Below, in pieces: positions 15,574 through 16,521 of a stretch of 18,705 nt of DNA. The notes beneath the pieces were generated by a model, which made no database searches, had not been told where the DNA came from, and was given only the letters and a program-made list of their open reading frames with translations. How positions within the stretch are numbered: position 1 is the stretch's first letter; every line of letters starts with the position of its first letter. Where the stretch lies: the IMG/VR virus record IMGVR_UViG_2778261458_000001, positions 1 to 18,705 of that record, one strand, 5' to 3'. The DNA comes from a virus (taxonomy: Duplodnaviria > Heunggongvirae > Uroviricota > Caudoviricetes). The position numbers were made by a program, and so were the translations under genes.

Positions 15574-15907
15574 TTCACCCTCCTGAGGGTTGGTGATTAA
15601 GGAGTTCTCCACGGGTGAGGTGGAGTGCGTGCGCCGGACACGGGTGAGCATCCGGCACTGACAGTTTACTGAAAGGATATTTCCCTGAAAAGTCAGACCA
15701 TAACGCGAAAGCGCACGGCGAGGTAGCTGGTTCATAGATAGCCTGTCGTTAAATTTTCGTCGACCGTGCGCTTCCGGTTGTGGCAATCCGCGAAATGGCG
15801 CGGCGGTAAGTATGGCGGGGTTATTCCTTCCCCGTTGAGGACACCGGGTTGTCAGGTTGACCATACGCTTAAGTGACAACCCCGCTGCAACGCCCTCTGT
15901 TATCAAT

Positions 15908-15958
15908 TTTCTGGTGACGTTTGGCGGCATCTGTTTGCCCATGAACTGATGTCCGCCC
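15908..15958 (+). ncRNA. dicF: DicF small RNA homolog (variant 3' half)
   Basis: TTTCTGGTGACGTTTGGCGG matches the remembered 5' 20 nt of K-12 DicF; ends in a GC-rich hairpin plus TTTTT (15959-15963); correct position between ydfC and dicB. Downstream TTTTTAAAGTGAATTTTGTGATG also matches K-12. Confidence 0.8.
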
Positions 15959-16132
15959 TTTTTAAAGTGAATTTTGTGATGCAGTGAATGCGGCTAAGCG
16001 CACGCGGAACAGTTAAAGCTAAAAACAGTGTTATGGGTGGATTCTCTGTATCCGGCGTTAATTGTTAACTGGTTAACGTCACCTGGAGGCACCAAGCACC
16101 GCATCACAAAATTCATTGTTGAGGACGCGATA

Positions 16133-16321
16133 ATGGAAACGTTATTACCAAACGTTAATACGTCTGAAGGTTGTTTTGAAATTGGTGTCACTATCAGTAA
16201 CCCAGTATTTACTGAAGATGCCATTAACAAGAGAAAACAAGAACGGGAGCTATTAAATAAAATATGCATTGTTTCAATGCTGGCCCGTTTACGCCTGATG
16301 CAAAAAGGATGCTGGCAATGA
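16133..16321 (+). CDS. dicB: Cell-division inhibitor DicB
   Basis: Internal ATG 16133 (GAGG SD) of ORF 16028-16321: METLLPNVNTSEGCFEIGVTISNPVFTEDAINKRKQERELLNKICIVSMLARLRLMQKGCWQ, 62 aa, matching remembered DicB. Confidence 0.9.
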   Translation: METLLPNVNTSEGCFEIGVTISNPVFTEDAINKRKQERELLNKICIVSMLARLRLMQKGCWQ

Positions 16322-16521
16322 ATACTACATTTGCACTTGTTCTGACGGTTTTTCTTGTTTCCGGTGAACCGGTTGACATGGTTACTGGCGTATACGGCTC
16401 AATGAAAGAATGCATGGTTGCCGCAGCGGAACAGAAAATTCCCGGTAACTGTTATCCGGTCGATAAAGTTATTCACATGGACAATAACGAAATCCCGGCA
16501 GGATTAAAAACAGCGCCGTAA
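16318..16521 (+). CDS. ydfD: YdfD-like small membrane/lysis protein
   Basis: ATG 16318 overlaps the dicB stop (ATGA); MNTTFALVLTVFLVSGEPVDMVTGVYGSMKECMVAAAEQKIPGNCYPVDKVIH..., N-terminal TM segment, resembles remembered YdfD. Confidence 0.75.
   Translation: MNTTFALVLTVFLVSGEPVDMVTGVYGSMKECMVAAAEQKIPGNCYPVDKVIHMDNNEIPAGLKTAP

Follow-up and report, generated by a model that had tools for sequence, protein, structure and literature searches.

A fairly common prophage allele of dicF with a conserved 5′ seed and a replaced hairpin top predicted to lack the ftsZ-pairing module

DicF is a textbook prophage small RNA, and its toxicity is due in part to the repression of ftsZ. In a stretch of 18,705 nucleotides from a virus of the Caudoviricetes (IMG/VR record IMGVR_UViG_2778261458_000001; the whole stretch is referred to here as the window), the initial annotation had singled out positions 15908-15958 as a DicF homolog with a divergent 3′ half, and had proposed that such a variant could have an altered target set. 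The locus raises the question of whether this element is DicF and, if so, which part of the DicF functions an RNA of this kind would retain.

The position of the element within the window was examined first. It occupies the place of dicF in a lambdoid dicBF operon. In this part of the prophage, the early region, the gene order is dicC/Cro-like, dicA-like, ydfA, ydfB, ydfC, a 109-aa ORF, the element, dicB, a ydfD-like gene and an exonuclease gene. The features around the element are the following:

13530..13757, minus strand: DicC/Cro-like regulator (Pfam P22_Cro), divergent from the dicA-like gene
13834..14241, plus strand: DicA-like HTH repressor (Pfam HTH_3 and Phage_CI_repr)
14444-14599, plus strand: ydfA (Pfam DUF1391; coordinates via the JP538 annotation)
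14601-14729, plus strand: ydfB (coordinates via the JP538 annotation)
14759-14977, plus strand: ydfC (coordinates via the JP538 annotation)
15000..15329, plus strand: extra hypothetical ORF of 109 aa between ydfC and dicF (JP538 annotation)
16133..16321, plus strand: dicB, cell-division inhibitor (Pfam DicB PF05358, 136 bits; dicB in the JP538 annotation)
16318..16521, plus strand: ydfD-like DUF1482 gene (Pfam DUF1482; JP538 annotation)

This layout agrees with the annotation of JP538, 86-24 and EDL933. The closest relatives of the whole window are prophages of swine E. coli isolates; CFSAN018748 covers 100% of the window and JP538 90%, both at 97% identity. The 109-aa ORF is not in K-12 and gave no Pfam family in a Pfam search; the interval that contains it (15000-15907) makes the distance between ydfC and dicF about 590 bases longer than in K-12. 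The spacer between dicF and dicB gave a sub-threshold Rfam STnc100 match (15947-16152, plus strand; 25.1 bits, gathering score 47), with 34.4 bits at the same place in K-12 and 35.5 bits in the spacer upstream of kilR; strong STnc100 matches occur elsewhere in these prophages, near tRNA genes. Other parts of the window carry two prophage tRNA genes (3591-3664 and 3765-3837, minus strand) with anticodon loops that read UCU and CAU when aligned to Rfam (their counterparts in O157 prophages are annotated as tRNA-Arg and tRNA-Ile), and a hok/sok type I toxin-antitoxin locus (8306-8630, minus strand), in which sok scored 110.7 bits in Rfam at 8456-8630 and hokD was assigned by homology to the JP538 annotation. 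An alpha/beta hydrolase gene (9165-9938, plus strand), with neighbours on the opposite strand, separates the replication genes from hokD.

The element itself, designated here as type B, reads TTTCTGGTGACGTTTGGCGG CATCTGTTTGCCCATGAACTGATGTCCGCCC on the plus strand, followed by TTTTT. Its parts are as follows:

15908..15958, plus strand: DicF-like RNA body, type B allele, 51 nt (Rfam DicF match and alignment to K-12 dicF)
15908..15927, plus strand: conserved 5′ region, nt 1-20, identical to K-12
15923..15957, plus strand: terminator hairpin, nt 16-50 (minimum-free-energy and centroid folds agree)
15928..15952, plus strand: allele-specific block, which contains every one of the 15 fixed differences that separate type B from the K-12 type (context comparison)
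15937..15942, plus strand: hexaloop GCCCAU, in place of the K-12 9-nt loop UUACUCCGU (folds)
15959..15963, plus strand: U tract of an intrinsic terminator (from the sequence; same in K-12)

Alignment with the MG1655 record confirmed the K-12 sequence used in the initial annotation and, as proposed there, the exact match of the first 20 nt to K-12 DicF. The further statement that the remainder differs held for nt 21-45 (CAUCUGUUUGCCCAUGAACUGAUGU; 15928-15952) but not for the final six bases (CCGCCC) or the U tract, both of which are conserved. The element is thus not identical to a standard DicF: its interior carries the 15 fixed differences and is 2 nt shorter than that of K-12 dicF. Around the element, the window is identical to K-12 over 48 nt upstream (the extent shown in the alignment) and 24 nt downstream, and the K-12 match extends approximately 100 nt upstream and 60 nt downstream.

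A search of 501 nt gave a match to the Rfam DicF family (RF00039) at 15909-15958 with 43.5 bits and E = 2.7e-08, in comparison with 76.7 bits for K-12 dicF. This match is not due to chance, because of its E value and its syntenic position 170 nt upstream of the Pfam-confirmed dicB. Since 43.5 bits lie below the curated gathering score of the family (48 bits), a default Rfam scan reports no DicF at this place. By position and descent, the element is a dicF homologue. It has the position in the dicBF operon, the single-stranded 5′ region with the seed, and the hairpin followed by UUUUU that characterize DicF; the property that gave the family its name, antisense to the ribosome-binding site of ftsZ, is predicted to be absent. 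Given this prediction and the sub-threshold score, we filed type B as a divergent allele of the dicF locus and not as a standard DicF.

The changes in type B affect both sequence and structure. Nucleotides 1-15, which are the seed used on xylR, are predicted to be single-stranded, and the divergent part still folds as a terminator hairpin, in agreement with the initial annotation, whose 13 base pairs are accompanied by a U.U mismatch and a single bulged U (−17.3 kcal/mol, in comparison with −15.9 kcal/mol for K-12; z = −2.8 against shuffles). In the K-12 fold, nt 1-15 are also single-stranded, and the 3′ hairpin has an internal loop and the 9-nt loop; the folds of type B give a tighter hairpin with a more fully paired stem. 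Type B shares with DicF of the K-12 Qin prophage the dicBF slot between ydfC and dicB, the hairpin plus U5 and the predicted pairing with xylR, and differs from it in the loop (UUACUCCGU to GCCCAU) and in the 3′ arm (CUGCUCUG to CUGAUGU). The type B hairpin was absent from the output of a simple consensus terminator scan; the U.U mismatch and bulged U of its stem are the probable reason. Promoter-like matches in a promoter scan were no more frequent than in shuffles.

Loci with the DicF 5′ half were then gathered from IMG/VR, GTDB representative genomes and RefSeq E. coli. Those with the K-12 5′ half split into two hairpin alleles, the K-12 type (type A) and the window type (type B), and no intermediates between both hairpins were found among the collected loci sharing this 5′ half. 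Type A showed a few single-base variants. Regarding type B, 23 copies were identical, one was changed at the bulged U and three had a 1-nt deletion in the seed, so that the allele is near-invariant over at least 24 loci in different prophage backgrounds; its neighbourhood of about 200 nt is conserved to the same degree as the element. The three copies with the deletion (L189, L190 and L191) carry UUUUCUGUGACG in place of UUUUCUGGUGACG, a change that would weaken pairing of the xylR type. Comparison of unique 900-bp contexts (95 for type A and 13 for type B) placed all the fixed differences in the upper part of the hairpin, and divergence between types in the flanks (15805-15923 and 15952-16010) was similar to the divergence within types. 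These data point to a discrete allele rather than to drift.

The exact 71-nt type B sequence was present in 288 complete E. coli genome records, and a further 3,523 E. coli records contained only the K-12 type. Carriers of type B include O157:H7 EDL933, O157:H7 86-24 and O121:H19, and the allele was also found in E. albertii NBRC 107761. Type B is therefore neither rare nor private, but a fairly common allele. In the INPHARED phage collection, type B was absent and all 21 records with dicF had the K-12 type. True matches in the GTDB scan were confined to Escherichia/Shigella, one type A copy on a Veillonella parvula MAG contig being the exception; the remaining matches were due to chance.

The type B loop also bears on a coding alternative, in which the real feature of the region would be a 214-aa ORF on the opposite strand (15298-15942, minus strand). 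The CAT in the loop, read in reverse complement, supplies the start codon of this ORF, which PGAP annotated as a hypothetical protein in JP538. Against this, the ORF has no Pfam family, and the frame ends after 12, 54, 68, 117, 123, 124 or 214 codons in the 28 examined copies of the type B hairpin, window included; in O157 it has 54 codons and no annotation. We consider it extremely unlikely that this ORF is the real feature, and rejected it as a gene on account of its non-conserved frame and lack of a Pfam family; it is probably an annotation artefact.

To place the type B hairpin among related elements, we scanned for its 3′ arm, CTGATGTCCGCCC, which revealed a wider family at many IMG/VR loci (L199-L398). 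Dozens of prophage loci have the stem base GGCGG...CTGATGTCCGCCC plus a U tract, a spacer of about 155 nt, and then dicB or kilR. The hairpins in this position bear several unrelated 5′ regions and several loops, and one hairpin type of the family was found before either gene. An example is the Rac-like prophage of EDL933, where a 56-nt DicF match upstream of kilR (L197, 16460-16515) scored 39.1 bits, below the Rfam gathering score, with a stem, GGCGGCATCAG...CTGATGTCCGCCC-TTTTT, almost equal to that of type B. This Rac-type hairpin, listed as 'DicF_3' in the EDL933 ncRNA table (PMC5331693), resembles type B in its stem (GGCGGCATC.G ... CTGATGTCCGCCC TTTTT), its downstream spacer and the division-inhibitor gene located about 155 nt downstream, and differs from it in having a longer loop and a 5′ region, UGUGUGUAGUCCU, that bears no relation to that of type B.

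Type B agrees exactly with the wider family in 3′ arm and spacer, and its loop is closest to the TTTGCCGATTG loop type. K-12 DicF is the odd one out, with another 3′ arm (CUGCUCUGCCGCCC) and an anti-Shine-Dalgarno loop. Type B is thus a mosaic that joins the DicF 5′ seed to the common stem and adds its own loop, and the data are compatible both with type B as the ancestor of type A and with type B as a recombinant. The 3′UTR-derived sRNA SdhX shows a similar arrangement, with a constant seed and a remainder that varies between lineages (review); in dicF, by contrast, the variable part is a second, experimentally defined target-binding module.

The conservation of the stem base and the U tract over many unrelated 5′ regions fits a hairpin selected mainly as a terminator. 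This suggests a second alternative, that type B is mainly a terminator or processing hairpin setting the read-through into dicB, its RNA having no regulatory role and its top being free to vary. The occurrence of stem base, U tract and spacer in many prophages before dicB or kilR favours this explanation, and the more fully paired stem of type B could alter the efficiency of termination. However, the 20-nt seed equals that of K-12 base for base, whereas other lineages differ widely in this region, and the near-invariance of type B over its loci also argues against a terminator only, although the surrounding neighbourhood is equally conserved. Furthermore, terminator and regulator roles are compatible, as K-12 DicF is both. 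On balance, a terminator without a regulatory role is possible, but we regard it as unlikely.

The functional modules of K-12 DicF have been defined experimentally. The 53-nt RNA arises when the ydfABC-dicF-dicB transcript is terminated and processed by RNase E (review); biochemical data indicate an RNase E 5′ end, a 3′ end made by termination or RNase III, and Hfq dependence (review). Mutational and compensatory analysis assigned pairing with the ribosome-binding sites of ftsZ and pykA to its 3′ region and pairing with xylR to its 5′ end; control of ftsZ is abolished by 3′-region mutations that leave xylR unaffected (PMC5069750).

Pairing of both alleles with mRNAs was calculated with our own simplified, IntaRNA-like, accessibility-aware dynamic programme, in which the energy is the sum of nearest-neighbour hybridisation (interior loops of up to 5 nt) and the opening energies of both RNAs. 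The panel consisted of 65 K-12 translation-initiation regions from three loci. Two simpler procedures had been discarded: plain RNAduplex, applied to long leaders, predicted duplexes with unrealistically large loops, and windowed RNAduplex with a loop filter was unstable and gave no K-12 DicF output for ftsZ or xylR. With the accessibility-aware calculation, the first three of the 65 ranks for K-12 DicF were occupied by xylR, pykA and ftsZ, that is, by the validated targets, which supports the method, its validation being based on these three known targets against 62 bystander genes.

The xylR site was the same for both alleles (−12.3 kcal/mol, rank 1; nt 5-15 with +10..+20). For pykA, K-12 DicF gave −10.0 kcal/mol (rank 2), with nt 26-42 paired with −18..−1, including UACUCCGU with ACGGAGUA; pairing with this ribosome-binding site was lost in type B, where the value for the 3′ half alone went from −10.0 to −3.1 kcal/mol. 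A second pykA site, read by the 5′ seed (+30..+37, −9.2 kcal/mol), exists for both alleles. For ftsZ, K-12 DicF gave −9.3 kcal/mol (rank 3), with nt 25-52 paired with −28..−1 and CUCCG with the CGGAG of the Shine-Dalgarno sequence, and the best site of type B reached −3.5 kcal/mol (rank 40 of 65), a value at background level given a panel median of −4.0 kcal/mol for this allele. In the calculation, the K-12 9-nt loop makes the contacts with the Shine-Dalgarno sequences of ftsZ and pykA. The interaction prediction against ftsZ, xylR and pykA suggested in the initial annotation thus moved ftsZ from rank 3 to rank 40 and left xylR unchanged. In computational terms it backs the proposed alteration of the target set, as pairing of type B with the ribosome-binding sites of ftsZ and pykA is predicted to be lost and pairing with xylR to be retained.

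These values also bear on the possibility that type B is functionally equal to K-12 DicF and represses ftsZ through the shared 5′ half or through Hfq loading of the kind described for manX. In the K-12 duplex model, the 5′ half also contacts ftsZ at +5..+25; type B retains that half, its first 20 nt being those of K-12, so residual regulation is possible, and DicF is known to act on manX in a non-canonical mode that depends on Hfq (PMC5861419). On the other hand, the 3′-region mutations DicF9 and DicF23 abolish or weaken ftsZ repression despite an intact 5′ end (PMC5069750), and type B has no CUCC anti-Shine-Dalgarno motif and only a background-level ftsZ site. Functional equality of both alleles is, accordingly, quite improbable in our judgement.

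A gain of function was also considered, in which the new loop and stem would give type B targets of its own beyond those of the 5′ seed. In favour of this, the loop GCCCAU is conserved as a discrete substitution and could form kissing contacts with AUGGGC. Nevertheless, the 3′ half exposes only these six bases, and its best contact in the 65 initiation regions was −5.7 kcal/mol, with contacts of 4 nt, which makes targets of this kind very unlikely.

In EHEC, DicF has been reported to pair with an anti-Shine-Dalgarno element within the coding region of pchA. We examined a PerC-family gene in CP-933M of EDL933, which from its annotation we take to be pchA. In its minimum-free-energy fold, the Shine-Dalgarno sequence pairs with +93..+100, and nt 1-8 of DicF pair perfectly with +98..+105 (−6.1 kcal/mol, both alleles); this is the site overlapping the Shine-Dalgarno-pairing segment, the only one considered, and the top-scoring long duplexes of K-12 DicF on this mRNA were set aside. 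The predicted pairing is compatible with, and gives a weak indication of, a retained pchA-type function in type B.

Altogether, we favour, with somewhat better than even confidence, the explanation that type B is an sRNA that acts through its 5′ seed only, the division-blocking module having been replaced by a generic terminator top. The RNA would derive from the ydfABC-dicF-dicB transcript, with RNase E cutting at the 5′ end and its own hairpin acting as terminator, a route proposed by analogy since the flanks carrying these signals are those of K-12. The single-stranded seed would then maintain the action on targets read by it, namely xylR and probably the EHEC PerC-family activator pchA. 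Type B has a GCCCAU hexaloop on a tighter stem where K-12 DicF has an open anti-Shine-Dalgarno loop, UUACUCCGU, and a different 3′ stem arm, and with this replacement it should not block translation of ftsZ or pykA in the way that K-12 DicF does. We infer expression, Hfq binding and phenotype of type B from these comparisons, and the allele probably regulates only part of the usual target set of DicF. Type B would then represent a natural separation-of-function DicF, with the metabolic and virulence seed but without the division-blocking module.

The presence of type B in O157:H7 led us to locate the DicF-like loci of the current EDL933 assembly, of which there are five:

EDL933, CP-933M: K-12-like copy with two 5′ changes (76.9 bits)
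EDL933 NZ_CP008957.1, 5′ end at 1847321, minus strand: type B copy, in the ompW-adjacent prophage, which also has paa and hokD
EDL933, prophage adjoining that of type B: K-12-like copy with one change (75 bits)
EDL933: Rac-like element (39.1 bits)
EDL933, prophage adjoining ynfA (its position in the old table matches CP-933P): copy identical to K-12 (76.7 bits)

At the Rfam gathering threshold, the three other dicF copies of EDL933 are called and type B is not. In 86-24, type B is likewise located in the prophage adjoining ompW, and in these O157:H7 strains it coexists with K-12-like copies. In the O157 ompW prophage with type B, the adhesin gene paa occupies the slot of the alpha/beta hydrolase gene of the window. 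The copy in CP-933M (L196, 8064-8115, minus strand), of the K-12 type, is altered at two positions of the 5′ seed (AUUCUGGUGACAUUUGG) and at one of the stem (GUAACUG), indicating that the DicF seed also varies between copies of one genome.

The EDL933 ncRNA table lists four DicF entries (PMC5331693). On the basis of order, length and neighbouring sok and STnc100 matches, these entries map to the copies in CP-933M, right-hand CP-933O, the Rac-like prophage and the ynfA-adjacent prophage, type B being unlisted. An assignment of type B to 'DicF_2' of the table, derived from the spacing between dicF and sok, was wrong, as DicF_2 is the K-12-like copy in the adjacent prophage. Four dicF copies are also the number given for EHEC in reviews citing Melson and Kendall (2019). 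The multiple dicF copies of EHEC reportedly connect type III secretion with oxygen limitation by way of pchA. A text search of a literature collection for the type B sequence returned nothing relevant.

As a tentative extension, which we hold at clearly less than even confidence, type B would be an expressed, Hfq-dependent separation-of-function DicF and an overlooked extra dicF-like gene of O157:H7, and the hairpin proximal to dicB or kilR would be a modular platform for shuffled 5′ seeds and loops. Since annotation based on Rfam misses type B, copy counts in O157:H7 and 'all-copy' deletion strains may be incomplete, and type B may persist in strains described as being without any dicF copy. 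If this reading is true, an allele with only the seed could explain the tolerance of extra dicF copies, and type B would be a ready-made natural tool to separate the functions of DicF.
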